NCBI GenBank assembly: GCA_016748015.1 | Contig: JAAOMT010000480.1 | Span: 186,001 to 250,000 of the forward strand | Reading direction: 5' to 3' | DNA: 64,000 bases | Source: Geosiphon pyriformis uo1 | Taxonomy: Eukaryota; Fungi; Glomeromycota | Part shown: piece after piece, positions 1,329 to 63,700 of the stretch | Layout: each line of letters opens with the position of its first letter | Position numbering within the stretch: position 1 is the first letter of the stretch | Notes under the pieces: generated by a model | The model's database searches: none | Seen by the model: only the letters and a program-made list of their open reading frames with translations | Told to the model about the DNA's origin: nothing | Position numbers and translations under genes: made by a program

Positions 1329-1359
1329 CTTTCTGTTATATTTTTGGGTTGAAATGTTT

Positions 1360-5200: not shown

Positions 5201-5469
5201 ATAATGGTGTGGTCGACAGTTCTTTGAGTTTAAATGGAAAAATGGCGTTCAGTAATTTATTCTCAGTGATGGTAGCTGGCAGAATGTTGCTGGTAAGTGT
5301 TGGTTGTTGGTTGGTCTCCAGATTATTGGATTGGGCATCTTCTGTGGTAATCAGGAGACTTAAATAGTTCTGGGAATTTGGGTTTTGGATGTATCCAGTG
5401 CCTGAATTCCATTGTTGAGATTCTGCTGGTTGTGTAGAAGAACTGGGGATCAGTTGGTAAACTATCATT

Positions 5470-7510: not shown

Positions 7511-7518
7511 GAATTATA

Positions 7519-7535
7519 CCTCACAGGGAGCACCA
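7519..7535 (-). promoter_or_regulatory. Primer-binding site (TGGTGCTCCCTGTGAGG)
   Basis: Begins TGG 2 nt inside the LTR end. Complementary to a tRNA 3' end ...CCUCACAGGGAGCACCA, which resembles elongator tRNA-Met. Confidence 0.8.
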
Positions 7536-7537
7536 AA

Positions 7538-23830: not shown

Positions 23831-24029
23831 ACGAAAAATGAGTTATTATTAGGTAAAGAAATATTGATATAAACTAAAAGAAACAAAAAAACTTCTTTTT
23901 ACAGAAAATGTGCTTTTTGAGAATTTTTGGAGGTGAGAGAGAAAGAAGTTTTATAAAAAATTTTATGCTTATATATAACCAATTATTCAAATTAATTAAA
24001 ATTATACTATGTATTTATATTATTATTAT

Positions 24030-31066: not shown

Positions 31067-31918
31067 TATTATAGATAATTATTTGAAATATTAGAATAAA
31101 TAACAAATCTATAATTTAATGCTTAATAATTAATTATGTTAATAAATTCTAAAAGATTTTTTGTATTTAAAAATTTTAGTTTAAATTTTTTGTATAATAA
31201 ACAGAAATTTAATTAGTAATTTCTTTTAAATTTTTTTCTTTAACATAAAAACTGGTTTAATTTAACAGTTGTGCTCTTTTAATAAGCTATTTTTAAGTTT
31301 TTGATCTTGTTTTACAGATTTTTTACTAAACTATTTTTAATATTAATAATCTTAGTATTTAATCTTTTAATTAATTAGTATATACAAAATACAACAAATA
31401 ACAAAAAAAAAATAGAATAATAAAGATAAAGAAGAAATCAATATTTTGTTAATAGTTATAATCAAGAATTATTATTTCTGTGTAATTAAGCATTAAAGTT
31501 TATTAGTATAAGTGTTAATAGATAAAAGCAATAAATATATAATTAAATAATCATAATAGCATATATGGTAAAGTATATAATAAGTTTATTAAATAAATAT
31601 AATTTTATTTTAACTATAAAAAACTATTTTTTGAAATAGAATAGTAAATAGAAAAATTAAATTGAAAATTCTTGTTTTTAATTATTTGTCTGTCTTTTTT
31701 TTATTTTAATCTTATTACTATATATACTTAATTTTATAATACAAAATTTTTTAAAAATTTTCAATTTTTTCTATAAGTTTTTTTGAAATTCTAAAATTCT
31801 GCAATTTTTGTTTAGTAAATTTCTGAAATTCTAAAATTCTGAAATTTTTTTTTATTATACCTATTTTCTATTGGCTATTTTATCTAATTATTATTATTTT
31901 TATTTTATATGAAGAATA
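31067..31918 (-). repeat. 3' LTR of a further Gypsy copy, interrupting the protease of copy C
   Basis: LTR homology. Followed by the PPT/pre-PPT motif (ttatttccttttttt aatattaagctctattaaaat) also seen at 45357-45393. Confidence 0.7.
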
Positions 31919-38700: not shown

Positions 38701-38764
38701 TTAATTTTTTTTCTTAAATTAATTTTATTACTTTTTTTTCTAAAATTGTTTTTGTAATTTTGGT

Positions 38765-41016
38765 TTTAGAAATATTAGAAAATAATTATAGAACAGCAGC
38801 TAACAACATTAGTAATGCTCAGGAATAACAAAAAAAAAGACATAATAAATGCTTACTTGAACAACTAATAGAATTCAAAATTAGAGACCAAGTACTATTA
38901 TATCATACAAAAGCTAAGAAACAATAGAATAGAAAGTTTGACCCAAAGTGAGATGGTCTATTTCATGTACACAAAGTTTTAGGCAATAGAGCTTACAAAT
39001 TACAATTAGAAGACAGAATTTTAAAGAAAGTAGCACATGGAAATCAGTTAAAAATTTATCATGCAAAACAAGAATCATCATCATCAATACCTCAACTAGG
39101 AACACAAATTTCATTAATTAGACCAGAAGATATACCACGAGATCTGGAACCAATTATTGTCATCAAAACATAGACAATGTGCAGCAAATTAAATTAAGAA
39201 ATTCAAATATATATAACATCCAAAAAAACAGCAAGAAATGATAGAACTTTTAGCATAGACTTGTCAAATCAAATTTTACAACTCTCAAAACAACTATTTG
39301 ACACAATTCAGCAATCTTCTGCTCAAATAAAAGTAATAATTGATAAAAAAAAATATGATATAAGGATAAAAGCAAAAAAGAAGAGAGCAAGAGTTCAATT
39401 AGAACTAAATAGTCCCACTTCTATCCAATGCCCAAAAGAAGAAATTGGAGAAAAGATTTCTTTTGGGTGGGAGAGAGAATAAAAAAAGTTTATAAAAGAA
39501 GATACTTAATTTCTGAGCTTGAAAAATTTAAAGAAGCTTTAGTTTATGAGACCAAACTTCTCAAAACAGGGGAATAGACACCTAATAATGCCCAGAAATA
39601 AAAAAAAAACTTTTTTCAACATATTGGTTTTACAAAATTGGTAAACAACTAGATTTGAAAACACCATATGGAGACTTCAGCCAGAAAACTTTTAACAAAG
39701 AAGCAATACAACAAGTAGAAAAATTCATAGGAAAAAGCAACTTAACTCTATATTACAAAGCAGCATACCAACTATATGCTGCTTTTCAATATTGTCCAAA
39801 CATACTGTTGTATGGATCTATAAAGACTATAACAGTTAACAATATAGAACAAATAACCAATTAACAATTTGAAAACCTATGAAGAACAATACTTGACACA
39901 ATTATCAAACACTATATAAACAAAACCATAATAACAGATATATATGATTTCACAGAAACTCAATTCTAAAAAGAGAGAAATAATGTTACTTAAGTAAAAA
40001 AATTGATCCAAAGTTATAAAAAAACGTGACCAAAACATGACATAATACAGAATAGTGCACAATAATATTGAATAATACATTATAACTTAGGATAATGTAG
40101 AATAATGCATTATAATATGGAATAATATATAATAACATATAATAACATCAGATAATGTATTATAACATAGAATAACTAGTAATAATATAGAAGAATAAAG
40201 CAATTACAGAAATAGCAAAGCAATAGTTAGCAATAATAGAACAGTCAGAAAGCAATTCTGTAAAACCAAAAAAATGTATAAAAACAAGTAATGGAAGAAG
40301 GTAGAAAAAGACAGACATTTAGATACAAACCACTAAACAAAAATCAAATATCCTTACCCCTTTTATTATTTATTCTATTCTATATTCATCTTCTAAAATA
40401 AATCAATTATTGAGAATCAGAATCATGAATTTATGTTCTTGAACTTTGTGGAATTTACATAAATTAACTATTGTTTCATACTTTCATTCCAGGACAGATG
40501 CTCTTAGCATAACTATCTTGAACTATTAATAATTTGGACCAGTCACTCTTAATTATGGTGATTGATAATACTAATTTATCTTCTTTTATTTTTTTTTCTT
40601 TTATTTTTATTTTTATTTTTATTTTCTCTTGTGAAGTAGCAACATAGTAAAATCAACTATTTAGGAATAGATTTTGTGATAGCCTGGTAAAAGAAGGAAG
40701 CTCCCTCTAAGTTTTGGATATTAACATTATCTTGGTAGCTTACTAAAAGGGCGAAAAAACAATGCCAGACCCTAATAACTGTGCTCATTAGCTTGGAGAA
40801 GATAGCTTATATTTATAAGAAGTTGTAATCAGTAAAAGCCAAACCTCTGTGCCTTATAACCAAAAAACTCAATGAGTAAATTCACAACCAGTAGATAAAA
40901 TTTTTAGAGACTGATAATCAAGACTAAGTCAACAGAATTATGTGAAACATGCATTACCGATAATTAAGAACACTAAATATTACCATTTCTCTATTTTACC
41001 AAGTTTATTTGTAATA
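38765..41016 (+). mobile_element. 3' remnant of a Gypsy element: integrase C-terminus, ORF3, PPT, 3' LTR (39984-~41016)
   Basis: EFKIRDQVLLY...DGLFHVHKVLGNRAYKL, then PPT AAAAAGAGAGAAATAA followed by TGTTAC at 39984. LTR body resembles the reverse complement of the copy A LTR. Confidence 0.8.
39177..39969 (+). pseudogene. Gypsy ORF3, unknown protein
   Basis: ATG 3 nt after the integrase TAG (39171-39173). Contains AIQQVEKFIGKSNLTLYYKAAYQLYAAFQYCPNILLY and is homologous to 51863-52516. Confidence 0.7.
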
Positions 41017-44444: not shown

Positions 44445-45889
44445 TATTACAAATAATTATTTAGGATGTTGGTACAAATAATAAATTTGTAACTTGGTAT
44501 TTAATAGCTGAGTGGTGTTGGTAATATCTGAAAGTTTTCATGATCTAAAGATTTTGGTTGAATCTTTTATATAATAAACAGAAATTCAATGGTTGTTTTA
44601 GTAGTTTTCTAGAATAGTTATTCTGTCAAATTTTTTTTTCCAATATAGTGGCTAGTTTATTTTAGCAGTTATGTCTTTTGAGTAAGCTATCTTCAATTTT
44701 CAAGTTCTATACTCTTATTTTTAGATCTTTTATCAGACTATTTTTAATGTCAAATTACTCAATGTTTAATCCCTTTAATTAGTTAATAAATTAACAAAAC
44801 AAACAAAAAAAATGGAAAAAAATTAAAAAATTAGTATTCCATTAATAACTATGATTAAGAGCTATTGGTCTAATATAGTTAAGTATTAAATTCTATTAAC
44901 ATGGAGTGTTAATAAAATAGAAGCAATTTTATTATTCTTTAATTAAATAATGATAACATAAATTTAAGTCATAATTAATATTTTATTAATATGTAATTTG
45001 ATTCTGCTTCAAGTTGTAAAAAACTATTTTTTAAAGGGAGGAGTATGAAATAATTAATGAGTTGTGAGTATTAATTTTGAATTGGATTCTGTTCTTTCTG
45101 TTTTTAACACTCTTACTATATATACATATTTTTTGTTTTATAAGATCTCATATTTTTTTGAGCAATATGTTCTAATTTACTGATATTACTCACATTGCTA
45201 AGTAGTATGTCTTAATTTGCTAGCACTGTACATATTGCTGAATAATATGTTATAGTTTTTAATATTGTGCTCATGTATTAAGTACTATTTTCCTATTGGT
45301 CTATTTTTCTATCTGTTTTTCCAGTTTTTTTTCTTTGTATTTTCTTATGAGTAACATTATTTTCTCTTTTTTAATATTGAGCTCTATTAAAATCTTCACT
45401 TTGAATTAAGTTCATTACTTTTTTTTTTAATATTGTTTGTTCAATTTTGTTCAATTTTGTTCCTTATTTTTTTGCATTGAGAGTTGTTTATTTTTTCTTA
45501 CTGGTTAACAGTTATTGTTTTTATTTCCTAATATAGTAGTATTTCTAGATAGTTTTAAAATATAATGTGCAGTTAGTAAATTGTTTTGATTTATATTCTT
45601 GAATTTGTCTTTTTTTTGATAAACTCTTTAATTTGTTGTATTATTTTTTGATTAAATATTTGTTTAAATTTATTAATATATAATTCTTGAATATTTAGTT
45701 TTTGTTTTAGTTGATAACAATAGTATGTTACTAGAAGTTATTCTATCTATAGCTTCCAGTTTTTTTTGGTTAATTCCTTTGTTGGAATTATTTTTGGTAT
45801 TTTTTTAAAAGTATTTTTTACTTTTTCTATGATTTTATCTAATCAATATTTTGTTTGGTTCTGTAGTTGCTAATATGAGATTGTTTTTG

Positions 45890-45950
<61 letters not shown>

Positions 45951-48900
45951 TGTTTTGATAACAGATTGTTTGGTGGTTAATAACAATTTTTATGTTTAAT
46001 TATTGTTGATTTATGGCTTGGAATAATTGTTAAGTCATTGTGTAAATGTAGTATGGGATTTCCATTTTTTATTGTTGCTATTGTCATATTTACTATGTCT
46101 TTATATACTATTTTGTAGATTGATTAACATGTTTGTATTGATAATTATAATTGGTTCTAGATTTTGTGAAATCTTATCTGGTTAAATTAGTATTTATTGT
46201 ACTTCCAGTTATAGAATATTATTGGTTAATAATAATACTATATTGTGATATGGTTTTAGTCAATTACTATGTACTGTTTTGGTCAAGATTTTGTTGTTTT
46301 ATCTTAATTTATAAGCTCTATTTCCTAGAATTTCTTTAATATAAAATAGTTTATTCTATTTGGGATCAAATTTTTTATTTTATTGTTTTTTTGCTTTGAT
46401 ATGATGTAAGAATACTTTGTTTTTAATTTTAAATTCGACTAGTTTATCTAATAATTAATTATTATATTGTTTTTTCTGTTTTTTTTATGACTTTTAGATA
46501 TTATCACTTTTTGTTTTTTAATGTTTCTATTAAGTCATATGTTTTTTTTAGCAATATTTTTTGAAAATTGGCTTTTATTATTGGTTTTATTGGATATATA
46601 TTGATATTTATTTCAACTGGTAATATTGTTGTTCTACCATAAACAAGTTTAAATAGTGTTGCTTGTATAATATTTTGCTTTATTGTCTAATAAGCAAATA
46701 CTACTAATAGTATAAACAAATCTTATTTGTCTTGGTTTTTTTGGCTAATTTTAGTAATTATATTACATAATGTTCTATTGAATCTTTCAAATAAACCATT
46801 GTTTCATAAATAATATGGTAATAATAATAATCTTTTAATTCCAAATTTTTGACTTAATTCTGTTAATGTTCTATTTACAAAGTGAGTTCTCTGATCTAAT
46901 AATAATTCTTTTGAACATTTATGTCAACAAATTAAATCTTGGTAAACAAATTTAGCTATGGATTCTACATTTGCTCTTTGAATTGTTTTTGCTTTTGGCC
47001 ATTTTATGAGATAGTTCATGGCTATTACTATATATTAATTAGCTTTACTGGTAATAGTTAATGGTTTGACTAAATTAATTTCAATTTGATTAAATGGTTG
47101 TCTCATTTTAATTAATTTTAACAGTTTACTGGATCTTGTTTCTTCTTTTTTCTGACAAGCATTACAATTTTGAACATATTAAATAATATTTGAATATATA
47201 AATAACTAATAGTATCTTTTTCTGGTTTTTTCTATGGTTGCTTCTTTATAAAAATGTTCTGCTATTGGATTTGAATAGATATTGAATAGTATTGTTTCTT
47301 TCTTTGGTTTTGTAATCACTTTAAGTAACTGACCTGGATATTTTCTGTTTTTTCAGTATAATATATCTTGGTAAGTGATAAAATATTTTGCTTGTTGTTT
47401 TATGTTGTTTTGTTTCTTTTGAGATAAATTTTTTTTGAACTGTTAAGTATTAATATAATATTAAAGTTATTAATATTTTTGTATGTTTATCTTTTGTGAT
47501 ATTTTTGAGTTGAAATGTTTTTAGATTTGTTTTATTCGTGACAAACCATTGGCATTTTTATTTTTTTTTCTCTTTTTATAATATACAGTATAATTAAATA
47601 GTAATAGTTTTATTTTCCATTTTGTATGACAATTATTTTAAATTCTTGCTTCTGGATTGATGCCAATTCCTTGTGATTAGTGTATACATTAAACTTTTGG
47701 CTCAAGTATTTTTTCATTTAATAACAGCCCAATAAATAGCCAAGTGTTCTAGTGCTAAAGTTTCATAGTTTTTTTTGGCCAAACTTATACTTCTGCTAAC
47801 ATATATTACTGAATATTTTCATCTATCTGATTTTTTTTAAGACAATATGGCTCCCAATACTTAATCTGATATATTTGTAATAATGATAAATGATTTGTAA
47901 TAATCTGAATAAATTAGTACTAGAGCTTAAATAAGCTTTTTTTTAAGATGTTGAAAGTTTTTTGTTAAGTTTTTATCCATTCATATTTGACATTTTTTGT
48001 TTGGAGCTAGTAAAGTAATTGAGCCAATTTAGAGAAATTCTAAATAAAGCAACAATAATATCTTACAAATTCCAAAAATGTTCTTAGTTCTGTTAAGTTA
48101 GTTGGTATTAGAAAATACTTGATAATTTTAATTTTATTTGAATCTATTTTGATGCTGTTTTTGCTCATAACATGTCCCAAAAACTTGAGTTCAGTTTTTC
48201 CAAAAAAGCACTTGGTTGTGTTTAGTTTTAGTTCTGTTTATCTTAATCTTTTAAATACTTGCTAAAGATAATGAAAATAATTATCAAATGTTTCTGAAAA
48301 GATATTGGTATTATTTAAGTAAACTATTATTGATTTTCATAGTAGTTCTGTGTAAACAATTTCTATTAGCTATTGAAAAGTGGTTAGAGTGTTTGTTAAG
48401 CCAAAAGACATAATGTTAAATTCAAAGTTTTTTTTTTAGTTGTAAATATAGTCTTTTCTTTATCTTTTAGTTTTATGGCTACTTTTTAATAACTATTGTC
48501 TAGATTCAATATTAAAAACCATTTTTTTCTCCAAATGCATTAAATAATTCTTGAATTTATGGAGTTGAATAGTTGTCTTTATGAGTAACATTATTGAGTT
48601 TTCTGTAATCTACACAAAAGTGGATTTTCTTATTTTTTTTATGAACAAGTACTACTGGTAATAACTATGAGGTTATGAATGGTTAAATTAACCTATTGTT
48701 TAACATTCTATTGATTTCTTGTTGGATAATTTTATGGTTTATTAGTAATACTCTGTATGCTCATTGTTTTATTAGTATTATATTTTTAGTCTTAATTTGA
48801 TGTTGGATAATATCAGTTCTGTTAAATTCATTTTTACTGGCAAATATGTTAGTAAAATTGTTAAGTAGTATCTTGAATTGTATATATTAGAGTGAGTTTA

Positions 48901-49304
48901 AGTTTTCCAAGTTTATTTGTTCTAATTATTTTTGTTGGAGTAAATAACATTCTTTTTATTCATATATTGTTTGTGATATAATATCTACATATTCACACAG
49001 CTGTGGAAAATTTGGAATAATGTTTAGTAGTTGGTTCTCCATTTTAGGCTTAAGTATTCAATAGTGGTTCTAGTTGTATTGTAGATAGAAATTTTGATAT
49101 GTTTATAGTTTTTGGCCAATATGTAAAAATTAATAATTTCAATTTTTTTTGATTTATAAATAGTTGGTTCTGCTTTAAAAATCTGAGATTGGTCTTTCAC
49201 TTTTCTCTTTATTACTAACATATGCTGGTTATATAATAAAATAAAAATTGATTAATTGGTGAAAATAATTTTTTTCTTATCAATGATTTTCTTTTTTGTC
49301 ATAT
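44445..49304 (-). mobile_element. Gypsy copy D (3' LTR 44445-45356, PPT, ORF3, IN, RH, RT), cut just before dUTPase by element E
   Basis: 46170-49304 is colinear with 1-3160 of copy A. LTR ends GAGTAACA and is followed by the PPT. Confidence 0.88.
45891..45949. repeat. Poly(T) homopolymer, 59 nt
   Basis: Uninterrupted T run between integrase and the ORF3 core of copy D. Confidence 0.95.
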
Positions 49305-50857
49305 TATTATGGTTGAAACCTACACTTTTTATTAATTATTACATGTATTAGCCACTGATGTTATATAATTAGCCACTCTATTTTTAGATAGTGATTAATA
49401 ATCTGACTGTTAAACTAATCAATAACTTGATCATTAATCTGATTATTAACCTAATTATTGATCTAGTCGTTAATCTAATCATTGACCACTTTTGATAGCT
49501 ATATAAGTAATGAATCTCTTAACTGTAAAAAAACATATAAGAATTAAAGAAAATAAATAAATAAAATAACAACTTTCATTTCAATCATTTTTTTATTACT
49601 AAATTCACTTTTTTTACCTTCAAATATCTGAACATTTTGGGATAAAAGATCATTTGTTGGTTATTTTTTACTCTTTTTCTGACTTGTATAATTGTAGCAT
49701 TTGAAGATTATTGAATAAAATGTGACTAAAGAGTACATCTAATACCTAATATTGAATTCTAAGAGTGCCAATATGAGGCATAGAATTATATCAGTGTGTA
49801 ATCATTTATTAACAGTATGAACTATCCTTCTACTTTCAAATTCTCTGGTTATCTTTTAAAAAATATAACAACTGAGATATTTTATGAGACTAATCTTGCA
49901 CATTGAATCCATACTTATTTAATTTGCTCTTTAAAGTTGAATTCCTTTTGATTCCTTTCATTATTCTATAATTCTGTTTTTCTTTGCTATTTGTTAGCTT
50001 GTTACTTTAACCCATAACATAAAAGTAGTGCTTTTTGTAAAGTTGTTAAAATCTACTTTGTTTCTTATTGTATGAATGATTATTCATACCTGCCACAACA
50101 ATCAGAAGAATACTTTGAAACACACAACAAAAACGATCTAGACTTTATTGAACTCAATTTTTTGTCCTTCTGTTTAATTTGTTTCCCTATTGAAAAACAA
50201 TCCAGTAGACAATTCCAAGATTTTTGGAACTGGTTCCTAAATGAACATTCAGCTGAAACCTACACAACCTATACAACTTACTACTTTGACCAAGCTTATC
50301 TTAAAGACAACTTTAAAGAAAAAAACAACAGCATTAATCAACTTTTATACTTAACAATCTTTGAACAACAGCCCTCTGATTTCGAATATTTAAATCATCA
50401 AATTCACATCTGAATTGCTGCTTATCAATCAGTTAAGACTTCTCTTGAAACAGAAAAAAAAAGCTACTAAACTGCTCCTGTTTTTGATCTCTTTTTAAGT
50501 AAATCAGAACATTTCACACAAACAGTTACTCCTGAACTAATGGCTAATGACTCCATACAACCAAATATCTTAGCTGCCCTCCAAGATATACAAACTGCTT
50601 TGGGATGAAGAAACAACACTCTACTACTCTTATTCAAAGACAATGTACAAGATCCAATTAAATAGTTAGACAATTTTAAAAGAGCAGCTACTGCAAACCA
50701 ATATGACACTGAATACAAGTTCCAAATTGTTGGTGGTTACCTTCAAGGCTCTCCTGCTACTTGGTTCTTACAAGAAACCAATGCTGGTGCTCACCAAAGA
50801 ATTATTAGATAAATACCAACAAATGCTGGAGAAGAAAACACTTCTTTCACAACCCAG

Positions 50858-51828
50858 TATTACTGGAGGTTTTTGGTCTCTTTTTTTGAATGTTGTTACT
50901 GTTTGTCTGTTGTTGATTTCACGTTTTCTGAAAGCAGTTGAACCTCCAATAACTGAATTTATCTTCAAATTATCTCCTATAATTTGAACTGCTGGGCTTA
51001 CAAGTAAAATGGCCAATTCCGTGCCAGTTACTTTGTGTAATTATGTTGTAGTAAACATCAACTCTTTCCCAGGAATTGCTTGTCTGGAAGCTCACTAAAA
51101 TGTGTAGTTACTTTGCTGTGAAAGTCAACTCTTCTACAGGAATCTCGACTGTAGGCTACCCTAATAATTGTAATAAGAAAATAAAAAAAAATAAAAGAAA
51201 TACAAAAGAAATAAGATTTTATCAAGGGAAACGTTTTCTATCCAGGCCTGAAGTTACTAACAGATTATTGAAATTGATAGCTAATCAATTTCAAAACGTT
51301 AATTGTGTTGAGAGAATTTCAAGTGTAATAATTTAAGGATTTGGTTTTCGAATATTTAATTTTTTATTTGAATGTATAAAAGATGATTTGTTTTAATTAA
51401 GATATCTAAAGTAGGATGCTATGGTAAGATACTATGAGAAGATACATTTTCTTGAAGAGAGAAGCTCTTCTTTTATACAACTTGTTGTAATACTAGTCTT
51501 TGAACTTGCACTTTTCTTTTTGCTACAATTTGGGTGAACTAAAGATACATTTCGGCAAATTACAAGTTATTTCACTGAACTATTAATTATTTCGGCCAAT
51601 TTTCATTAATTTCGGCGAATTTTGACTATGTTAAATAGTTCAGGGTATTGTGTAATTTGATCATCTTAATTTCTAGAGTACAAATCGGATTATTGATTGA
51701 GTAAGGATATTTAATAATTTGATTAAATAATAAGTAATAATTGAAATAATAATAATGTATGTTAATTAATAATAGGAATTATGAGGGTAATTTTATGCTA
51801 ATTAATAGTTAAAATTCTACTGGTAACA
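50858..51828 (-). repeat. 3' LTR of element F
   Basis: Direct repeat of 59794-60764, ~95% identical with no indels seen. PPT AGAAGGAGATTA at 51829-51840 (-). Confidence 0.96.
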
Positions 51829-51862
51829 TAATCTCCTTCTCAAGACTGAGCTTTATCAAAGT

Positions 51863-52516
51863 TCAAGCACTATCTGTAATATTAAGATAGTGGTCTAAGA
51901 TAATTAAAGTAATTTGGTCTGAAAATTGTTGAAATTTCAGTTCTGTAAGCTTTTTAATGTATTAAATCTTTATTGAATAAAGTATTAGATTTTGTAGGAT
52001 GTTTCCACAAGTGTTAAATAGATTATAAAGTCTAAATGCTGCTCTAAGTTTGTAGTGAGTGTTTGTTGATCCAGCTGCTGTCTTAAATTTATTGTGAATT
52101 TGTTTTTGTATAGCCTCAAGAGTAATGTTGGTTGCTTTAAGTTCCAGTTTTCGTTCATAAAATGTTTTTCCAATATAAAAACATCTATATATAAGGGTAT
52201 GTTCATTGTTCTGTTCATTGAAATATAGTAGAAATTTTTGTTGCATTGTGGTATTTGGTGGAATGTTAATAGGAACAATTAAAAGATTTTCTTTTAGTGC
52301 TTGCTTCAAAAGTTCTGGTAATTGATTTCCAGAGTAATTTTTTGTTTTTTTTCTATAGGGGTGATAATTCTAAGAATTATTTACTATTGGGGCTGTAGTT
52401 TTTTTTTGAATGTAATTAATTTGACTTCTATTAATTGTTATGGATAAATCAGGAAGTGTTTTCAAAGCTAACATTAATTTTTGGGATATTTGTTGAATAT
52501 TTTGGCAAATAATCAT
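51863..52516 (-). pseudogene. Gypsy ORF3, ~217-codon unknown protein (two internal stops)
   Basis: Single frame from ATG 52516: MIICQNIQQISQKL...CFYIGK...YKLRAAFRLYNLFNTCGNIL...IKKLTELKFQQF...ITDSA-stop. Confidence 0.75.
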
Positions 52517-52675
52517 GATAAAAATAACTAACGAATAAACAAAAAAAATAAAGAAAATTATTTTTTGGGTATAGGGTTTTTATTTGTTTTTGGGTTTGAA
52601 TGTTTTTTTTAATTATTTACTATTTTTAATTTATGTTTTGTGTATTTTAAAAGAGTTTGTGAAAATGTTAAATTA

Positions 52676-54057
52676 AGTGTTCAAGTTTGGTTGTTGTTTT
52701 ATTATAATTATTGGTTCTAAATTTCAGAGAATATCTTCAGGATTAATTAATGGAGAATGTATACCAATTTGTAGAATTAATAGTTCAGGATTGTTTCTAG
52801 AATGATAGTGTTTCAATCAATCTTCATGTACAACTTTTGCTAGTATTCTGTCATCAAGTCTTAACTTGTATAATCTATTGTCTAGAATTTCGTAAATATA
52901 AAATAGTCTATCTCATTTGTTTTCAAATTTTTCACTCTATTGTTTTTTAGTCTTAGTTTTGTATAAGAAAACTTTATTTCCAACTTTAAATTCATTGGTA
53001 ATGGGTGGTAATTTGTTGTCATGTCTTTTTTTTTGTTGAGCTTGAAAATGTTCAATCTGAGTTGCTGCTATCCTTCTTTTTCCTTCCAGTGTACTAAGAA
53101 GAGTATAGGCCCTTCTTTGGAGTGTTTCTTAAAAGTTTTCTTCATTAATTGGTTGCACAGGGTATGTTTCCACTGTGAAATTAATTGGTAATGTTGTTGT
53201 CTTTCTATAAGTAAGATCAAATGGTGTGTGTTTTATAGTATTTTGTTTTAGTGTTCTGTATGCTAGTAACACTAATAGAATAAAGATATCTCATTCCTGC
53301 TCAAAATCTGTTAAGACTTTGGCTAAAGATTCACACAATGTTCTGTTGAACCATTCTACAAGTCCATTTGTTTGCAGATGATAAGATAATGATAGAGGTT
53401 TTTTGACATTGAATTGTTCACAAATTTTTTGTATCAAGTTGTTCACAAAATGTGTTTCTTGATTAGATAAGAATTCAATTGGGCATCCATGTCTACAAAT
53501 AATGTCTTCATAGATGAAATTTGCTACTAATTTTGCATCTGTTTTTTGAATGGCTCTAGTTTCAGGCCATTTAGTAAGATAATCTACTGCAACTGCAATA
53601 TAATAATTTCCTTGGGTTGTAATAGATAATGGTTTGACTAAATCAATTCCAACTCTGTCAAAAAGTTGTCCAACTTTGATTGGATTTAAAGATTCTGTGG
53701 GACGAGTTTCTTCTCTTCTTTGACAACTATCACAAGATTCTATATATTGTTGAATATTTTTTTGCATGTAAGACCAAAAATAATGTTCAAGGGTTTTTTG
53801 AATTGTTTCATTTTTTCCCAAGTGTGCTAAAGAAAGATTTGTGGGCATATTGTATAGAATTGTTTTTTTTTATTCTCTTGTACTAATCTGAGTAGTTGGT
53901 TTGAATTTCTGTAATTTTTGTAATAGATTTTGTTGTAATGTATAAAATATTGTTTGGATTGGTGTTGTAATCAATGTTTTTCACTTGGAAACCAATTTTC
54001 TGGTGTGATAAGAATCTCTAAATAGTTTTTAAGATTGTTGTAATTTCTGGGATCCAT
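52676..54057 (-). pseudogene. Integrase of element F (stand-alone ORF, ATG at 54057)
   Basis: MDPRNYNNLKNYL start, AHLG...CDSCQ, VGIDLV, LSNQETHF, QTNGLVEWFNRTL and GPF/Y-type tail. No chromodomain seen. Confidence 0.9.
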
Positions 54058-54113
54058 TGTTGTTTTGTTATTTGTTGGTAGGTTGGTAAGTTGTAGTGAA
54101 TTTGTTAATATTA

Positions 54114-57100
54114 TTAATCTTGTCTCATTCTTGAGAGACTATTAACATTAGTGTGTAATTTTCTTGGTTTGTAGTGTACAATATATTTGTAATCTGCTAG
54201 GAAATCATTCCATCAAGACTGTTTGGCACTTTGTTCAGTTTTCTTCTTATTGAGCCATTTGAGACCAATATTGTCAGTTATGATGTCAAATTCTTTTCTA
54301 TTCTTCAGATATTGTTAAAAATATTTAAAAGCCCAAATAACTGCAGTGGTTTCCAATTCAATTGAGCCATATTTGAGTTTTGTTGGTTTGAGTGTTTTAC
54401 TGGCATAGGCAATAACTTGTTCCTGGCCATTTTTATCCAATTGTAATAGAATGGCACCAAATGCTATGTGTGAAGCATCAGTGACTAGTTGGAACTGTTT
54501 GTTGAAGTCTGGGTAAGCAAAAACTGGGGCTGTTGTCAATTTTGTTTTAAGAGTTTTAAAAGCTTTTTGTTGTTTTTCCATCCATTTGTATGGCACATTT
54601 TTGTTGGTAAGATAATTAAGTAGTTTGGCAATTTCTGAGAATCCTTTGATGAATTTCTGATAATAGGAGACTAATTCTACAAATTCTCATAGCTCTGTAG
54701 TATTTTTGGTAGTTTGAAAGTTTTTGACAGCACTGATTATTCCAAGATTTGGTTTGACTCTATCTTTGCTAACAATGTGTCCAAGAAAAATTAAACTTGT
54801 TTTTTCAAAGTGACATTTCTTAATGTTCAACTTTAATCTTGCTTTCCATAATCATTAAAAAACTTTTTGCAGGTGGATAAGATAGGCTTCAAAGCTTAGT
54901 AAGTATACATTAGTGTTATCAAGATAGACAACTACTGATTGCCACAAAAGTTTTTCATATACAACATCCATAAGTTGTTGAAATGTTGTTGGTGCATTGC
55001 AGAGTTCAAAAGGCATAACATTGAACTCATAGTTCCCTCCTTGAATAGTGAATGCTGTTTTGGGTCGATCTTTTGGGTCCATTTCGACTTGCTAGTATCT
55101 ACTTTCCAAGTCTAAAATTGAGAAGAACTTGGCTTTTCCTAAGGCATTCAGCATATTATCAATTCTTGGAAGAGGGTAGATATCTCCAATTGTTATGCTG
55201 TTGAGCTGACAATAATCTACACAGAATCTGATTTTTCCATTTTTCTTTTTAACAAGAACTACTGGTAAGATTCAGAGACTTCTTGATGATTGAATTAATC
55301 TGTTATTGAGCATTCTTTGGACCTCTTCTTTGATAAATTGGTGGTTAGCAGATGGAACTTAATAGGTTTGTTGTCATTTTGGTAAAGCATTTCTTATATG
55401 AATTTAGTGTTAAACAATATCAGTTTTTCCAAGATTATTGTTGTTTTTTGCAAATATATCTGCAAATTTAGCTATCAGTTGTTTCAATTGTCTTTGTTGT
55501 TAGAGTTCTAAGAAACCTATGTTAATTCAAGAGAGTTTTTTTTTCATTAGGTAATAGTTTTCAGTAGTAGATGTGATGTTTAAATTTGAAAGTAGAGTAT
55601 GTTTTATAATTTTGATGAAATTAGAGACAATTTGAGAGTTTTCATCTTAGAAGATATTGCTGTATATGATTTCAATGTCTAATTTATTTAATAAGACAAT
55701 AGGGTAATTATTGGGGTTGTAGAATATAACTCAAAATTTTTTTTGTTTTTTTGGGAATATAAATGTTTGGAATTGAGATTTCATGCTTTAAACAAATTTG
55801 TTCATTGGATTCAAAGATTTGTTGGATAGTGGTGGGTTTTGAGCAAGTATAAATTTCGTGATGTTCACCAAAAGATGAAATGATGATTGGTTGGAGAAGT
55901 TGAAGAATTTGGTGAGATTCATTTTGTGCATTAAAAGCTATGTTTACTGGTACTGTAAATTGTCCAGTTGAACCAAAATTTTGAGTTTTTCTTTCACTTT
56001 TTCCCAATTGTTCTCTGTTCTTAACTGATTGTAAATCTGAAATGTTGATTAAGAGTAGGTAAATTGCTTGGGCAATTTTTTAAGCATGTTCAATTCTGAA
56101 TGGTTTGTTTGTTTTATTCTGCAATATGATAGTAATGTCTCCAGTATATCCTGCATCTATAACTCCTCCTCTAATGTTGATTCCTTTGCTTGCCAATGAT
56201 AATCTGGATGCAATTTGAACTATTGCTTTAGGTGAAATTTCAAGAGCAATTTTGAGATTGATTTTTGTTAAGAACTTTGATTAGAAAACCAAAGTGTTTT
56301 TTTCTGAGTATCTTAGATTATATCCAGCATCTATCTCAAGTGTTTTTTTTGGTCTGATTCCTTGGCCATGGTTGTCGAAATATTTAAGTTGTAGGAGTGG
56401 TTGATTTTTAAGAAGATAAATAAAGATGGTTGGTAGTTTTTCTATTAGTTCAAATACTCTAAATTCAATTTTATTTTTGTTATTTTCGTCATTTTCATCT
56501 GACAGAAGAATGCTAAAAGCATAGTATTTTAAACACCATTGGTCATCACAAGGCATAATACATTCTTCACATAATTAAATGTTTATTTGTTCTAATCATT
56601 GAATTTGAGCTTCTTTGGTTGGGTATGTATAACTTGCAATTTGGTAGTAGATTTCTACTTCATTTTTATAATCAAATTCAGCTAATTCTATGGTATACTC
56701 AATATATTTAGCTTCTTTTATTTGGCAGACATCTTCTTGGATGGCTCCATTAATTAATACCATTGCTAAGTCAAAAATTATTTCAGCATCATAAGGGTAG
56801 TGATAAAGTTTGTTAAAAGCACTGTTGTATGCTGCATCAAATGGTGTTCTTCTTCTGACTTTTTCCAAAATTGATAGAGCATATTAACAGGTTTGATCAC
56901 ATACTTCTCCTCTCATTGCAACATCAATCCAGTTACATTCTTCTGGTAGCATATTCCCATATGTGAAGCAAAGTGTGTTGTCCCATTTTCCACTTCTTTT
57001 TGGGAATTCAAATCATTTTCTATGGTATGGTTTGTAGAAGTAGCAGGTGCGAGTTTCATATTCTTTTTTTGGGGAAATACAAGCTCTCATAGATAAAAAC

Positions 57101-59780
57101 TTCTTCTTGCAATCTTTGCATTTTAGTGGAATGTATGATGATTCTTTTTGTGATTTTGGTGTGGAATATTTAACTTTTTTTCATCCTCTTGATTCTTCAA
57201 AAATCTTTTGTTTTGTTTCTTTAGCCCAACTGGATGTTAATCCAAGAGCCATGTAGGTTTCAGTAAGTGGCATTTTTTTTTCTTCCTCAAATTCGAATAC
57301 TGGGGCCTTTTTTGACTGTTTGTTGAAAGTACCACAGATTGCAGGTACTATAGTATATTGTCCTTGATATGAGATTTTGAGTTCCTGAGTTTCCCAGTCT
57401 AAGTTTGTATTGGCCTTGAAAAGCCAATCATTTCCAACAAGAGCTTAGTATTGGGATGCATCCATGACTAGAACTTTGACTGAAATGGTGATTCCATCAA
57501 TGGTAAATGAGAAATTATCAATTTCTTCTACTGGTGTCTTTTTCATACTATCTGCTGTAACAATTACAGTTTGGGCTGGTCTGTTAACATTTCGATTAAG
57601 TTGTTGTATTAATTGGTATGTAATAATACTTTCAGCAGATCTATTGTCTAGTATTAATCAAATGGGTTTTCCTTTTACTATAGCTTCAGTATACATGGCA
57701 GTAATAGTTTTTTGTTTATTAGCTGCTGCATTACTAAGCAAGAATGGTGATTCATTTACTTCAAATTCGAATGGGAATATATCTGAGAGGTTGGCATTTT
57801 GGGCAATTTAAGCTGATGAAATGATATTGTTGGAAGGGTTTGATTTTGGTGCTGTAGTTTCACCTTCAGAAAGTGCAGTTTGTTGAAAATCTGATTTTTC
57901 TTGTATTATTAAATAACTGGATTGAGTGTAAAACTGAATGAATTTTTGTTAAACAGAATTTCGAGGAACTAGTTAATTATTGTGGTTAAATTTGTTGTTG
58001 TTTATTAAAAAACGGTTTTGTGGTGTAAATTGGTTTTGTTGAACCAATCTTCTGACTGGTACTTAATATTGTTGAATAGGTGGTGTCTGATATTGCTGAA
58101 TTGGTAAAGATTGCTGATATTGTTGCTGCATTGGTTGTGGAGCTGGTTGATAGTAACTGTTTTGATTTTGTGGTCTTGGTGGATAATAAATTGGTAGTGG
58201 AGGTTGGTAATAAGATTGTTGTGATGAAGAATAACGTTGATTATTTCTGTTTTGTTGGTCTTTTTGCAATTTCTTGCAATCTCATTTCTAGTGTCCTTGA
58301 ATTCCACAATAATAACAATTTTGAGATTGGTTGTTGGATAATAATCCAAAATTGTTTTGGTTGCATCACTGTGGGGGTTTATATCTTTGTAATTGTTGCT
58401 GTTGTTGTTAATAGTTTGTAAAATAGTTTTCAATCTTTTTTGTGAGTTGGTCTATCTTCTCTTCAGCTGCTAAGCTGGTTTCTCCAATAGCTAGGTTGAC
58501 AAGTTTGGTGTGGTTTGCTTTTTCCATTGCCATTTCATAGTTCTTTGCATGTTTAATGGCAGTTGCTAAGTCTTCTGGAGCATGTAAACAAACTTTCTTA
58601 ATGAGTTTGTCATTTAATCCTGCTATGAACTGATCCAAAATCTGGGTATTGGAATAGTATTCATTGGTTTTCAATTGTTGAATTTGTCGAAAAAGTTTAT
58701 TGAATCTTCCAAGATAAGTCATAACAGTTTTAGATGTTTCTTGTTTGATATTGCAAAAGCAATTGCGGAGAGTAATAGAGGTGTTGTTGTCAGTGAATTG
58801 TTGTAAAAAAGCATCTTTGAATGCTTGCCAGTTTTCAAATGATTCTTCCAAGTTTTCAAATCATTCTCCTGCAGTTTTTTGAAGAAAGTATGGGATTGCT
58901 TTAAGTATTTTTGCTGCATTCCAACCATTTACATCTCCTGCTTTTTGAATTTTGTCAAGCCATTTTTAAGGACTGGTATCATTGTTTTTACCAGTGAATT
59001 CTGGAATCTTTGCAATATAAGCAGTTGTTATTTCTTTTTCGTTTTCTGTAGTTCCTTTTTGTTCTGATTTAGTTTCTTTACTTTCCAAGTTTTCTGAATA
59101 ATTACTTTCGTTTTCCTGTAAGTAATCAATAATATTAGTGCTTGTTGATATGGGCTCCTGCTGTTGAGTAGAATTTCTAGGTAATTGATAATTTTCTGGT
59201 CTGGAAAAATGGTTAAGTGGTAAATTTGGTGTTTGTGATCGAGCAAGTCAAATTGGAAATAGTGTAATAGAAAGTGGTAATTTAACACTGGTTCCTTGTT
59301 CAGATGTTTGCAAGTGTTTGGCAGTTGTTTTTGGTAGTATTGGAGTGTTTAAAGTGATTTTTGAGTGTTGTTTCACTTTTTGTTTGTCTTTGTTGTTTGT
59401 TTTTATTTATGATTCAAAGTCAAAAAAGTATTTGGACTAGACTGGATATTTTTCTTCACAATACTCAATAATGTTAAAATTAAGTTCTTGGAAGTAGATA
59501 GCAAGTGTTTTACTGTTCAGGTTTTTTGTTTCCAATTGTGAATAGTGTACTAAATTATTGTAGAGGTTGTTTTTGACTTCTAAAATGTTGTAGTTTCCAA
59601 AAAGATAGTTGTTAATGCAATTTTTAAAGTATTGGTATACTGATTTCTTGACAACTTCAATTCTGTCTGGGATGTTAAATTTTTGCTTGCAGTGGGTGTA
59701 AATTGACTGATAATACTCTAGAGTTGTTGTGTTTGGTGTGGTCACCACTTTGAAGTTATTTTTGCTGTGTTGTTTCTGTG
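54114..59780 (-). pseudogene. Gag-PR-Cys-rich-dUTPase-RT-RNase H polyprotein of element F
   Basis: gag 57800-59780 (CYYCGIQGH knuckle), protease LILDNRSAESII (~57650), Cys-rich 56510-57130, dUTPase 55965-56350 (DAGYNL, ASRLSL, GGVIDAGYTG, KIAQ, NFGSTG), RT 54600-55450, RNase H 54114-54600. gag and protease read in the same frame. Confidence 0.9.
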
Positions 59781-59791
59781 GGAGAGCACCA
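59776..59791 (-). promoter_or_regulatory. Primer-binding site of element F (TGGTGCTCTCCCACAG)
   Basis: TGG 2 nt downstream of the 5' LTR, complementary to a tRNA CCA end. Confidence 0.8.
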
Positions 59792-59793
59792 AA

Positions 59794-60764
59794 TGTTACT
59801 GGAGGTTTTTGGTCTTTTTTTTTGAATGTTGTCACTGTTTGTCTGTTGTTGATTTCACGTTTTCTGAAAGCAGTTGAACCTCCAATAACTGAATTTATCT
59901 TCAAATTATCTCCTATAATTTGAACTGCTGGGCTTACGAGTAGAATGGCCAATTCCGTGCCAGTTACTTTGTGTAGTTATATTGTAGTAAATGTCAACTC
60001 TTTCCCAGAAATTGCTTGTCTGGAAGCTCACTAAAATGTGTAGTTACTTTGCTGTAAAAGTCAACTCTTCTACAGGAATCTCATCTGTAGGCTACCCTAA
60101 TAATTGTAATAAAAAAATAAAAGAAAATAAAAGAAATACAAAAAAAATAAGATTTTATCAAGAGAAACATTTTCTATCCAGGCCTGAAGTTACTAACAGA
60201 TTATTAAAATTGGTGGCTAATCAATTTCAAAACGTTAGTTGTGTTGAAGGAATTTCAAGTGTAATAATTTAAGGATTTGGTTTTCGAATATTTAATTTTT
60301 TATTTGAATGTGTAAAAGATAATTTGTTTCAATTAAGATATTTAAAGTAGGATGTTATAGTAAGATACTATGAGAAGATACATTTTCTTAAAGAAAGAAG
60401 CTCTTCTTTTATACAACTTGTTGTAATACTAGTCTTTGAACTTGCACTTTTCTTTTTGCTACAATTTGGGTGAACTAAAAATACATTTTGACAAACTACA
60501 AGTTATTTTACTGAACTATTGATTATTTCGGCCAATTTTCATTAATTTCGGCGAATTTTGACTATGTTAAATAGTTCAGGATATTGTGTAATTTGATCAT
60601 CTTAATTTCTAGAGTACAAATCAGATTATTGATTGAGTAAGGATATTTGATAATTTGATTAAATAATAAGTGATAATCGAAATAATAATAATGTATGCTA
60701 ATTAATAATAGGAATTATGAGGGTAATTTTATGCTAATTAATAGCTAAAATTCTACTGGTAACA
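59794..60764 (-). repeat. 5' LTR of element F
   Basis: TGTTAC...GTAACA termini; direct repeat of 50858-51828. Confidence 0.96.
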
Positions 60765-63700
60765 CCAGTTTGAAACTAAATTTAAAACTCCTATCCTGAT
60801 ATCCAAATGGCACATGGAATTAGAAAGAAGAACTCAAGATTCTGGTGAAGTTGTAACTGAGTATGCCAAAGCAATCAGAAAATTAATCAAGTGAATAGAC
60901 TCTAAAAAGAACTGGACAGAAAAGCAAAAGATTCATTTCTTTACAAAAAGATTGAGAACTGATCTTTCCTATGCTCTTTGGCTCCTTCTGGTACTAAAAA
61001 ACAATTCCACAATAGATATGACCATTGAACTTGTCCAGAGAATAGAAAACAATCAAAGAATGCACCTAAGATCTATACTTCTAGTTTTTGCTTTTGCTCC
61101 TGTTATGGCTTCTGCTTCCCAAATGACTGCTATCTTTTTTGCTGTCCAAACTCAAAACCCAAATAAACAGTTAATAGATAGACTTACAGCTAATTTTGCT
61201 CAGTTACTAGAACCCTTAGCACAAGCAGTTAGAAAGAATCAACAACTCCAAAAATCCAGATTTAAACTCTGTTTTAATCAACTTTAGCAACTTCCTTATC
61301 AAAGGCAACAAAATCATGGCCCATTTGTGTATTATTACTGTGGATTAACTAAACATTTCTCCAGAGATTGCAACAATCCTCCTCTGTCTTTTCAAGCTCC
61401 CAGAAACAATAACAATCAAAACAACAGAATCATCAACAACAATGTTTTTAACCAAAGACCCAATTATGTTAACATCAATTTCTTTGGAAAAAATCTCCTA
61501 GTTGAAGCCACTGTTTATCAGTCTTTAAACTAATAAGCATACCTCCAAAGAGTGAAAATGCAAGCCAATCAGAAAACAACCCCTTTTATGTTTTTAACCT
61601 AACTGATAATAACCATGATATAGATGAACTAACAATCAACTCCTCTGACTCAACAAAAAAAGAAAGAAAGCCAAGATTAATTTTATTTTAGATCTCAACA
61701 AAACCTTAACTTCCACTACTAATAACAATGAGCCACCAAAAGCTAAAGTTTTTAAGAATTCTCCAAAGTTGGAATCTCCAGAAATTGTACAAAAATCTGA
61801 ACCCTATTCTGTTGTAAAAGATCTTATGGAAACTCCAGCACATATCACTTTTGGCCAGTTAATAATCCATCCACAATTCAGAAAAGATTTTTACAAATCA
61901 TTAATACCAAAAAAAAAACACCAAAGACCAACAAACACTCTTGTCAAGCTGGACATGCTGACAACAGCAATGTTAGACTTTTAATTTATAAAGCCTAAGT
62001 GGCTGGTTATTTCATTGATCTAATCCTAAATAGTAGATCATCTGTTAGTGTAATTGCCAAACATTTTTTTGAAACAATTGGCAGAAAAATTGATAAGTTT
62101 TCTATTCAACCAATGACTAATGTACATGGTGACAAGAAAAAAGGCCTGGGCATAGTCAAAGCTATTCCTGTTTACATCAATAGTATCAGCATTAAAATTA
62201 ACATGAAAGTATCTGAAGCAAAAGAGTACATCATAATTGTTGACAATGAGTGGCTCAAGAAAGCCAAAGTGCTACTTGATTATAAAATTTGTGAGCTAAT
62301 CATCAGATATAGTGAGAAGTCCATAGTGGTTAAGTATTATTATTGGACAACTCTTCCAGTACCCAAGCAAAACCAAAAAGAAGAACAATTAGATGAATTA
62401 AATAATGATGAGAGTGATGAAAAAAAAATCAAAAAAAAACAAGAAGAAACTATTGAACTCATCTATATTATTTTTACTAGCAATGACAAGTCACTGGACA
62501 ATGTTAAAGTTGACAAAAAAGAAATTATGATAAATGACAAGCTGATTTGCTGGCCCTATTATAATATTCTTAGAAGAATCTTTGATAGAAAACCTAGCAA
62601 GAAAACAAAATACAGTTATTGGTAGCATGGTTTTTGTGCCAGGTGTTAGTGTGATAAACCTTTGTATTCTCCTAGTAATGAATACAAGTCCTGTCTAATC
62701 TATTACAAAGATTGAGAGCCAATTAGTTTGATACTCAGAAAAGAATTAAAAAAAGTACAGAAGTTCTTTAAGAATGAACCACCTAAAATCCAATTATTAG
62801 TTACAGAACAAAGAGAACTTTCCCCTAAAAAAAGAAAAATGGATATTGAAAATCTGTTGGCTAGAAATAGCCTAGTTATTTCAAAAAAAAGTAATACTTT
62901 TGGACAAACTCATATGATACAACACACTATTATCACAAAAAAAACTCATTCCATCTATTTGAAACTTTATCAATTCAATTGACACAATGATGAATTTATT
63001 AAGAAAAAGATACACCAGATAAAAGATCTTGAATTCATACAAGAAATCAAAAGTGAATGGGCTTTCCTAGTTGTAATGATATTTAAGAAAGGTGGAACTC
63101 TATACTTCTGTGTTAACTGCTGCCAATTAAATGTCATTACTATAAAAGACATATACCCACTTTTCAAAATTGATGTAATGCTAGATAAATTCAATGGTGC
63201 TGCTTTTTTCTTAACTATTGACTTAACTGCTAGATTTTGGCAAGTAGAGATGGATCCAAAAAGCAGAAAGAAAACTGCTTTTATTACCAAGTATAGCACC
63301 TATGAATTTACAGTTATGCCTTTTGGTCTTATCAATATCTCTTTCACCTTTCAATGCCTAATAGACAAAGTATTTAAATCAGTAAAAGAAAACTTTGTTT
63401 TGGTTTATTTAGATAACATAATGATCTACTCAAAAATCTGGGATAAATACCTTGAATATTTGCAGAAGATTTTTGACTTGCTCAGAAATGCTGGCCTTAA
63501 AATCAACCTAATCAAATTTTTCTTTGAATACCAATCTACCCAGTTCTTTGGTCATCTTATTACAAAAGATAAAATCTTCTCTAACTCAGCTAAAGTTAAA
63601 AAAGTTCAAAACATTAGACAACCAATGAATGTTTTTGAACTATGCTCTTTCCTTGGTTTGGTTTCTTATTATTGCAAATTTATCAAGGATTTCTCCAAAA

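Follow-up and report, generated by a model that had tools for sequence, protein, structure and literature searches.

In the lineage of element F, a Ty3/Gypsy-type LTR retrotransposon of Geosiphon pyriformis, the integrase is encoded by a stand-alone gene outside pol, as supported by neighbouring copies and related metagenome loci. The group to which the element belongs is widespread in fungi and soil, and its separate integrase gene is usually followed by a third gene, ORF3. No published description of such an element with a separate integrase was found in a literature search. The stretch analysed here (the window) comprises 64,000 nucleotides of contig JAAOMT010000480.1.

Element F and the other copies in the window

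Element F is confirmed as a complete but decayed Ty3/Gypsy-type LTR retrotransposon, with the following features:

60765..60768 (+), right copy of the 4-bp target-site duplication CCAG; left copy at 50854-50857
59794..60764 (-), 5' LTR, 971 bp, TG...CA
59780..59791 (-), primer-binding-site-like (PBS-like) motif TGGTGC..., directly after the 5' LTR
54114..59779 (-), gag-pol gene, decayed; start codon not placed, stop TAA at 54114-54116
58516..59019 (-), Gag capsid (Pfam Retrotrans_gag E 2e-11, Ty3_capsid E 5e-7)
about 58270-58320 (-), CCHC knuckle of Gag (E 0.057)
57376..57726 (-), aspartic protease (RVP_2 E 4e-5)
56520..57130 (-), Cys-rich insert containing multiple CxxC pairs, no Pfam match
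55963..56352 (-), dUTPase (PF00692 E 5e-19)
54189..55253 (-), reverse transcriptase (RT, 54771-55253) and RNase H (RH, 54189-54509)
54058..54113 (-), pol-integrase spacer, 56 nt; lacks both ATG and AG, and no fold is predicted
52673..54057 (-), stand-alone integrase gene with its own ATG at 54057; H2C2, rve and SH3-like end
52517..52672 (-), integrase-ORF3 spacer, 156 nt, no ATG
51830..52516 (-), ORF3, divergent member of a ~140-aa helical family (weak match: hhalign E 2e-4, hmmsearch iE 0.004)
51832..51841 (-), polypurine tract (PPT), preceding the 3' LTR
50858..51828 (-), 3' LTR, 971 bp

The element shares with Metaviridae (PMC7879559) the two LTRs, the PBS-like motif, the PPT, a gag with nucleocapsid and Ty3-like capsid, and the order PR-RT-RH-IN, and differs from them in that the integrase of its lineage lies outside pol and the third gene is not env. 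Pfam, run on the minus-strand frames with stops read as X, returned in order the Gag capsid, protease, dUTPase, RT, RNase H and then integrase, ORF3 being without match. The pol stop is located two to four codons past the RNase H end motif, and the TGGTGC start of the PBS-like motif is identical in copy A and in loci L002, L008 and L021. The LTRs, target-site duplication, domain order and pol stop bear out the LTR-PBS-polyprotein/integrase/ORF3-PPT-LTR layout proposed in the first-pass annotation. The element was also described there as complete, which is correct in that all parts are present, but it is not intact: premature stops occupy 22 of 1359 codons from gag to dUTPase, 13 of 494 in RT-RH, 6 of 397 in the integrase and 2 of 215 in ORF3, and frameshifts occur near 55720 and, within the integrase, near 53865. 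The two LTRs differ at 45 positions over 971 bp, 44 of which are transitions. The ORF3 stop had been placed ahead of the PPT; ORF3 does adjoin the PPT and LTR, but in its family the frame extends into the purine tract and reaches the edge of the LTR.

Four further copies were found in the window:

1..7540 (-), copy A: PBS, gag-PR-Cys-rich-dUTPase-RT-RH, stop, integrase (ATG 1328); truncated by the window start
24650..31735 (-), copy C: heavily A+T-shifted; layout as F, ORF3 region included
38763..40060 (+), remnant: integrase C-terminal part and ORF3 (profile iE 0.002)
44445..49306 (-), copy D: dUTPase end, RT-RH, stop, integrase, ORF3, LTR

That these copies, including the remnant at 38.8-41 kb, repeat the parts of F holds for the shared layout and the aligned stop, with the exception that copy A is without ORF3, the window beginning inside its integrase end. 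In all four copies that retain the junction (A, C, D and F), pol ends with a TAA at the same aligned position. The spacers from this stop to the integrase measure 31 nt in A, 19 in C, 30 in D (counted from the printed sequence for these three) and 56 in F, so that all three frames are represented.

Separate integrase genes in related elements

Among the 29 closest metagenome loci, all 13 that have RT/RH within 1.5 kb upstream show the same split between pol and integrase, and L020, L057, L083 and L105 are further split loci. A methionine is found at the profile start in 73 of the 120 integrase homologues listed. Of 53 distant loci, 14 were also scored as split, and among seven inspected, L057 was a true split; in the other six the break falls within a domain or shortly after its end, and these were discounted as decayed. 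Viral contigs contained only two distant integrase loci. One close relative, P0164, encodes RT-RH-integrase-ORF3 in one frame, and the split is therefore common but not fixed. The first-pass annotation, which had placed the integrase outside pol and named a continuous RH-integrase frame as the case against it, thus stands for copies A, C, D and F and the 13 close loci, with this single relative on the other side.

Transitions and stops abound in the window copies, and the split could be taken for an artefact of decay by C-to-T changes, or for a Ginger-type DNA transposon inserted behind pol, given that the integrase start resembles Ginger1 transposases (PMC2836005). Both are extremely improbable. 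Open-frame metagenome elements carry the same pol/integrase junction as the window copies, which already refutes decay for the group, and the stop holds one position in copies as distant as A and F, whose RT-RH are only 51% identical. A transposon insertion is contradicted by the lack of inverted repeats of at least 80 nt in the window, by the separate grouping of Ginger-like long integrases and by the agreement of the RT and integrase trees. Like Ginger1/GIN1, the lineage would have a Gypsy-type integrase translated alone, with a start just before a segment that resembles YPYY by eye; unlike them, the integrase gene is not free-standing: it lies inside an LTR element with RT and has neither terminal inverted repeats nor an Ulp1/OTU tail.

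The RT and integrase trees give the same sister pairs (L002+L014, L009+L016, L011+L024 and A+F), and the integrase therefore travels with the RT. Eleven rows, near-duplicates or a long branch, were left out of the RT tree; the integrase tree of 68 rows is a quick tree only, and the rows are unnamed or auto-named, with no named clade reference among them. A supported set of 28 RT rows comprises split elements together with a fused group, including one element with an extra RNase H; the RT of the split locus L028 falls outside the group. A single origin of the split was rejected by the AU test (p=0.025, 15 vs 18 rows, for a group named after the tree had been seen). The extra RNase H is a Tat trait, and a ~40-aa segment before the H2C2 finger appears similar, by eye, to that of the Athila/Tat-related 'YPYY' Gypsy integrases (PMC2836005; Gypsy-1-I_RO, DGLT-A), although the clade name is a lead only and those elements are described with the integrase inside pol, DGLT-A being a single ORF. 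The YPYY-like pattern before the zinc finger is itself visible by eye in the integrase sequences. The nearest solved integrase structure is that of Ty3 (E 3.5e-51).

ORF3 and the accessory modules

The evidence supports ORF3 as a conserved, soluble, basic, all-helical family of ~140 aa, uncharacterised and distinct from env. It counts 471 clusters, occurs only behind close integrases, and has a core net charge of +7 and an all-helical predicted structure (pLDDT 91). The third ORF of errantivirus-type elements encodes an envelope protein bearing transmembrane and surface domains, whereas none of 136 ORF3 proteins contains a membrane-like stretch (hydropathy 1.6 over 19 residues). Across 89 members, neither Pfam nor PHROG gave a consistent family, the best E against PDB sequence profiles was 0.33, and the model had no Foldseek match at E 0.001. 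The best VIA match reached Z 5.0 with an rmsd of 3.3 over 69 residues, a no-match result that does not exclude a known family; Atlas matches of 0.91-0.94 shared fewer than 170 features and had unrelated names. A likeness to the uS13 helix-two-turn-helix (E 0.48) was noted as a lead only.

ORF3 is missing from the split loci L021 and L024, and none was seen in L004, L010, L017, L026 and L028, so that the uncharacterised third module of the first-pass annotation is a real family, but not one present in every split element. Its connection with the integrase is likely, judging from gene position and from one natural fusion, in P0164, where it follows the integrase; two other joins (P0162, P0384) are in all likelihood gene-model artefacts. 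Because the protein is basic, soluble and helical, and was once fused at the integrase C-terminus, where chromoviruses carry a targeting domain, ORF3 would likely be a nucleic-acid-binding helper of the integrase, in targeting or packaging. The chromodomain found at this place in chromoviruses had no Pfam match in the F integrase, was absent from P0164 and was not listed among the best 114 matches of the integrase search.

The Cys-rich insert can be aligned among copies A, C and F, and had no match in the collected proteins or in 82 fetched loci. Since it is seen only in copies from this genome, it is a local add-on rather than a hallmark of the group, likely a zinc-binding one. The two uncharacterised accessory modules noted earlier thus remain uncharacterised, with the Cys-rich one confined to this genome's copies. 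The established role of dUTPase is to keep uracil out of cDNA, and the enzyme would do so here for the cDNA of the element. Its position between protease and RT has already been described in fungal elements (PMC2864245), Postia PosPlaTy3-5 and Tuber Tmt1, the descriptions of which include no separate integrase or ORF3.

Expression and packaging of integrase and ORF3

With pol ending at RNase H, and integrase and usually ORF3 following as separate genes, we give an even chance, more than to any other mechanism, to their production by stop and restart on one genomic RNA: ribosomes would terminate after gag-pol and restart at the next AUG to make the integrase, and then ORF3. Restart is favoured by overlapping stop and start codons, by AUG-poor spacers, by the integrase's own Met, by the occurrence of three frame offsets and by a covarying hairpin in one subgroup. 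Overlaps were seen in L003 (-1), L004 (-11) and L021 (-8) among 12 junctions, and also in L057 (-4), L007, L017 and L019, the last two having extra small ORFs chained to the integrase in this way. Eight pol-integrase spacers (530 nt together) contain one ATG, compared to 6.2 in shuffles (P=0.012). The integrase-ORF3 spacers contain 6 vs 7.5 expected with L005 and are then not AUG-poor, and 0 vs 5.2 without it.

On the other side, the majority of junctions do not overlap and have gaps of 30-110 nt, the spacers of L019 (521 nt, 8 ATGs) and L020 (727 nt, 12 ATGs) are long, and the hairpin is present in few loci. TURBS-type reinitiation, as in caliciviruses, involves a UGGGA core upstream of the stop/start site, and TGGGA was found in none of 13 loci within 150 nt upstream of the stop. 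Restart after a multi-kilobase ORF has been held improbable over long spacers (PMC3894237), and there are precedents in the restart of the non-LTR element SART1 and of the hypovirus CHV1 and the transactivated restart of CaMV. As in these systems, a downstream gene stands behind a long ORF, with some overlapping stop/start codons and, in one subgroup, RNA structure past the stop; they differ in that the present, putative case is in an LTR element, with spacing from -11 to over +100 nt and no TURBS core.

The hairpin spans 41 nt ahead of the integrase AUG in eight loci, whose integrases are 57-68% identical. Two-sided changes occur in 7 of its 13 pairs, and its covariation score is reached by none of 500 shuffles, while most individual copies have no better fold than shuffled sequences. 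It lies 18-27 nt past the upstream stop in the five loci whose contig includes that stop, and its distance to the AUG is 1-35 nt. Rfam gave no match for the six of eight loci scanned, viral contigs contained none, and the hairpin is absent from the window copies and from most split loci, among them L083, the sister of L008.

AUG-poor, T-rich spacers fit equally well with integrase and ORF3 being made from shorter mRNAs of their own, with internal promoters located within the spacers or immediately ahead of them, or else through an internal ribosome entry site, which we hold as possible, if on the unlikely side. The AUG-free, A/T- or pyrimidine-rich spacers resemble short fungal leaders, foamy viruses use an internal promoter, and the long AUG-containing spacers (L019, L020, and ahead of ORF3 in L003) are readily accommodated, as is the favourable start context, with G at +4 in 15 of 19 starts vs 23 of 77 internal Met (following from Asp/Glu at residue 2). 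The overlaps, however, leave no non-coding room for a promoter and would be purposeless except as relics of gene fission, and the hairpin is conserved at a fixed distance from the upstream stop.

Splicing, established for foamy-virus pol and considered here also on the model of Gypsy env, is improbable. The fungal gene models P0162, P0163 and P0384 do join these genes via predicted introns, but the joins excise the RNase H end and the integrase start. Since AG is absent from the pol-integrase spacers of F, L001 and L014 and the genes overlap in others, a splice acceptor would have to sit inside RNase H. It is highly improbable, too, that packaging is canonical, with an RH-integrase fusion still arising through stop-codon readthrough or frameshifting. 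The integrases of L001 and L009 are in frame behind a single TAA, and the fused relatives P0164, P0168 and P0188 fall in the same RT group as the split elements; yet all three offsets (0, +1 and +2) are found, six of eight spacers are out of frame or have an additional stop, and a Met is conserved at the integrase domain start.

Being separate, the integrase of the split elements would have to reach the particle without Gag-Pol fusion, as proposed in the first-pass annotation. Under stop and restart, free integrase would be packaged by binding genomic RNA or RT-RH. Foamy-virus Pol, likewise made apart from Gag, is packaged through RNA; in that virus a spliced RNA supplies the whole of Pol separately, whereas here the integrase alone is separate. 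More speculatively, and in our view unlikely as a whole, the elements might form an undescribed, large and old LTR branch in mycorrhizal-type fungi, with an operon-like RNA on which restart yields free integrase and a new-fold ORF3 as a detachable integrase subunit for targeting or packaging, with a dedicated hairpin linking the making of integrase to its capture by the RNA that encodes it, and with a free integrase gene from which, as a ready precursor, Ginger1-type DNA transposases could arise.

The usual view is that integrase enters retroelement particles within Gag-Pol; its production by stop and restart, if true, would give such elements a novel route to making and packaging the enzyme. 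The separate-integrase lineage raises the questions of how a eukaryotic ribosome reaches a second and a third long gene on one RNA, and of how an unfused integrase gets into the particle or comes together with the cDNA. It also brings with it hundreds of ORF3 clusters without name or fold match and an unlisted structured RNA. The elements are abundant in arbuscular-mycorrhizal genomes, in which gene prediction fuses or breaks them up into spurious genes, and any pipeline demanding an intact pol would score active copies as broken.

Element F and the repeats around it

50858-60764, minus strand: element F, with LTR pair, target duplication, PBS-like motif and purine tract
50018-50857 and 60765-64000, plus strand: Gypsy element interrupted in gag, within which F is nested
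17033-23900, minus strand, and 32000-38790, plus strand: two related decayed non-LTR-type elements, with an RT match in the first
8765-10418, minus strand: A+T-shifted remnant with dUTPase and RT, at 74% identity to F

The layout proposed for F in the first-pass annotation (LTR, PBS, gag-to-RNase H domains, integrase, ORF3, PPT, LTR) agrees with both LTR comparison and Pfam, in an element that is decayed (stops at 1-3% of codons, plus frameshifts). The LTRs, 971 bp each, differ at 45 sites, 44 of them transitions, the target duplication is 4 bp, and a PBS-like motif and purine tract are present. With stops read as X, Pfam matches were obtained for capsid, protease, dUTPase, RT and RNase H, with integrase in a different frame, and none for ORF3, the gene behind integrase. 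Since the frameshifts of the copies lie at different places, gag to RT is a single frame across the copies taken together. The named best matches to the integrase fragments are Geosiphon pyriformis proteins (76-83% identity), the remainder being from Rhizophagus, which makes Geosiphon or a near relative in the Glomeromycota the likely host.

The RT of the Gypsy element around F groups with those of F and copy A, and the start of its Gag has a CxxC...FWxW segment that it shares with the Gag starts of the related loci L002, L008 and L020. CpG is strongly depleted in the window repeats (observed/expected 0.02-0.12, against 0.83 at 11000-14000), and G+C falls to 14% in some copies. The two LTRs differ by transitions whatever the sequence context, which suggests that decay was methylation-driven or RIP-like.

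A separate integrase gene in the window and its relatives

The junction is preserved in four copies in the window. In each of them one and the same aligned codon, just past the RNase H end, is a TAA, and integrase starts 56, 31, 30 and 19 nt after the stop; RT-RNase H identity between A and F is only 51%. With the integrase of A as query, Met was found at the integrase profile start in 73 of the 120 matches listed (144 in total). The DNA context of relatives was taken from the first 82 loci, 29 closest and 53 more distant. Among the former, all 13 with RT/RNase H within 1.5 kb upstream of integrase are split, that is, pol ends after RNase H and integrase is its own gene, as is L020. The more distant loci comprise 26 fused, 13 without RT nearby and 14 scored as split; seven of these 14 were inspected, and six proved to be breaks within or just beyond a domain, the true split being L057, which has overlapping stop/start codons there and the only dUTPase among the first 82 loci. 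Two more split loci, L083 and L105, came from a further 79 that were scanned. The stop-to-ATG distance (12 loci) is -11 to +110 nt, with one of 521, and all three frames are represented. Some members carry an unnamed tail of 270-600 aa between RNase H and the stop (L008:3500-4438, L020:4900-6702 and L083). The fungal-type elements L083, L084, L085 and L105 come from assemblies of bacterial genomes, into which eukaryotic contigs were most likely carried over.

A long-protein search gave 919 matches, with four close ones among the 120 listed. Two of them, P0162 and P0163, come from fungal gene models in which the joins remove the RNase H end, P0165 joins gag to integrase, and P0164, a metagenome protein compared at the protein level, runs from RT through RNase H and integrase to ORF3 in a single frame. 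The stand-alone integrase claimed earlier thus holds for the window copies and close loci, but not for this relative. Of the 15 split rows among the 62 of the RT tree, 14 belong to a supported 28-row set (96/97), which also includes the fused P0164, P0168 and P0188 and eight fused rows; one of these eight carries an additional RNase H like that of Tat elements. The integrase tree (33 rows) places P0164 as sister to the split L003 and L004 (100/99), and the placing of all split elements in one clade is rejected (p=0.025, for a group named after a tree had been seen). The fused rows amid split ones and this rejection indicate that fusion and fission switched more than once. The sister pairs of one tree recur in the other, so integrase belongs to the element itself, and an inserted Ginger transposon is ruled out; YPYY-motif integrases and Ginger1 are described in passages of PMC2836005.

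Proposed translation of integrase and ORF3, and packaging of integrase

Readthrough or frameshifting would yield a fusion, for which the single in-frame stop of L001 and L009 could speak, but it is disfavoured by the mixed frames between pol and integrase; splicing is likewise disfavoured, as the spacers of F, L001 and L014 are without AG. What remains is restart, with roughly even chances, and an internal promoter or entry site, which we consider rather unlikely. Under restart, ribosomes would finish the upstream ORF and begin again at the next AUG, giving integrase and ORF3, with precedents described in parts of PMC10275272 and PMC3894237. Consistent with this are the overlapping stop/start codons before integrase in L003, L004, L021 and L057, the overlapping ORF3 junction of L007, the chained overlapping ORFs of L017 and L019, and the single ATG held by eight spacers (6.2 expected). 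Overlap is confined to a minority of the junctions. Restart at the pol-integrase junction is also favoured by a predicted 41-nt bulged RNA hairpin, found directly before the integrase AUG in seven loci, with a weaker eighth outside training.

Hairpin copies: L008:4462-4502, L007:184-224, L015:174-214, L018:7-47, L022:491-531, L027:18-58, L084:160-200, L006:23-61

Its covariation is strong, with compensatory changes, against a control inflated by the relatedness of the sequences. It lies 18-27 nt from the upstream stop (five loci), the distance to the AUG being 1-35 nt, and a scan of six of the loci against Rfam gave no match. Against restart count the lack of the hairpin in F, as in the window as a whole, the long, AUG-rich spacers of L019 and L020, and the absence of the calicivirus-type TURBS core (0 of 13 loci). 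The separate integrase may be packaged through RNA, by analogy with foamy-virus Pol (passages of PMC7828637).

L017 has an extra 238-aa gene before integrase (L017:521-1237), with an Mrr-like restriction endonuclease domain (PF13156, E 5e-9) and overlapping stop/start codons on both sides; L019 has two small unnamed ORFs at the same place.

ORF3, accessory modules and gene organisation

ORF3 is alignable over eight loci and F (hhalign E 2e-4 for F). Of the first 82 loci, nine match its profile, each of them one of the 29 closest; the 79 loci scanned afterwards gave a single match. F and the 39.7-kb remnant match weakly, and the ORF3 regions of copies C and D are linked to this remnant through translated comparison. 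Seven split or close integrases had no visible ORF3 in the 570-2500 nt of DNA downstream of them. The frame usually ends at a purine tract or LTR edge. The profile search gave 471 clusters at 50% identity, with a length of 85-230 aa in nearly all of the 150 listed and Cetraspora, Diversispora, Gigaspora and Rhizophagus as named carriers. The predicted structure is all-helical and confident (pLDDT 91), with a basic core and conserved Arg, Tyr and Gly, and a membrane segment is present in 0 of 136 proteins, which rules out env. As neither a family nor a fold match was obtained in sequence and structure searches, ORF3 is still the uncharacterised module it was first taken for. The single natural fusion of ORF3 to the integrase C-terminus, in P0164, suggests that it may work with integrase. 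In P0391 and P0492, gene models of Gigaspora and Cetraspora, the domain is part of a longer protein with a low-complexity tail; these may be host-recruited copies or model artefacts.

The second module proposed, the Cys-rich insert between protease and dUTPase, is alignable among A, C and F; it has no Pfam match, and no counterpart in the relative loci and proteins compared. Fungal elements with dUTPase between protease and RT are already described in passages of PMC2864245 and PMC6431247.

In the Metaviridae, according to the ICTV profile (PMC7879559), integrase lies within pol and env is third, whereas in the F family integrase is a separate gene and ORF3 is not env. No description of a Gypsy group whose integrase is a gene of its own was found in the literature searched, although Repbase, GyDB, REXdb and the supplements of PMC2836005 and PMC11952901 could hold such elements; none is given in the passages considered of PMC10508981, PMC4427930, PMC11952901, 10.1101/2021.03.30.436303, PMC12440569, PMC5911963, PMC2774666 and PMC3248453. 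The F lineage represents a real and widespread variation on Ty3/Gypsy gene organisation; its third gene has no name, and we infer the mechanism by which the lineage expresses its genes from sequence.
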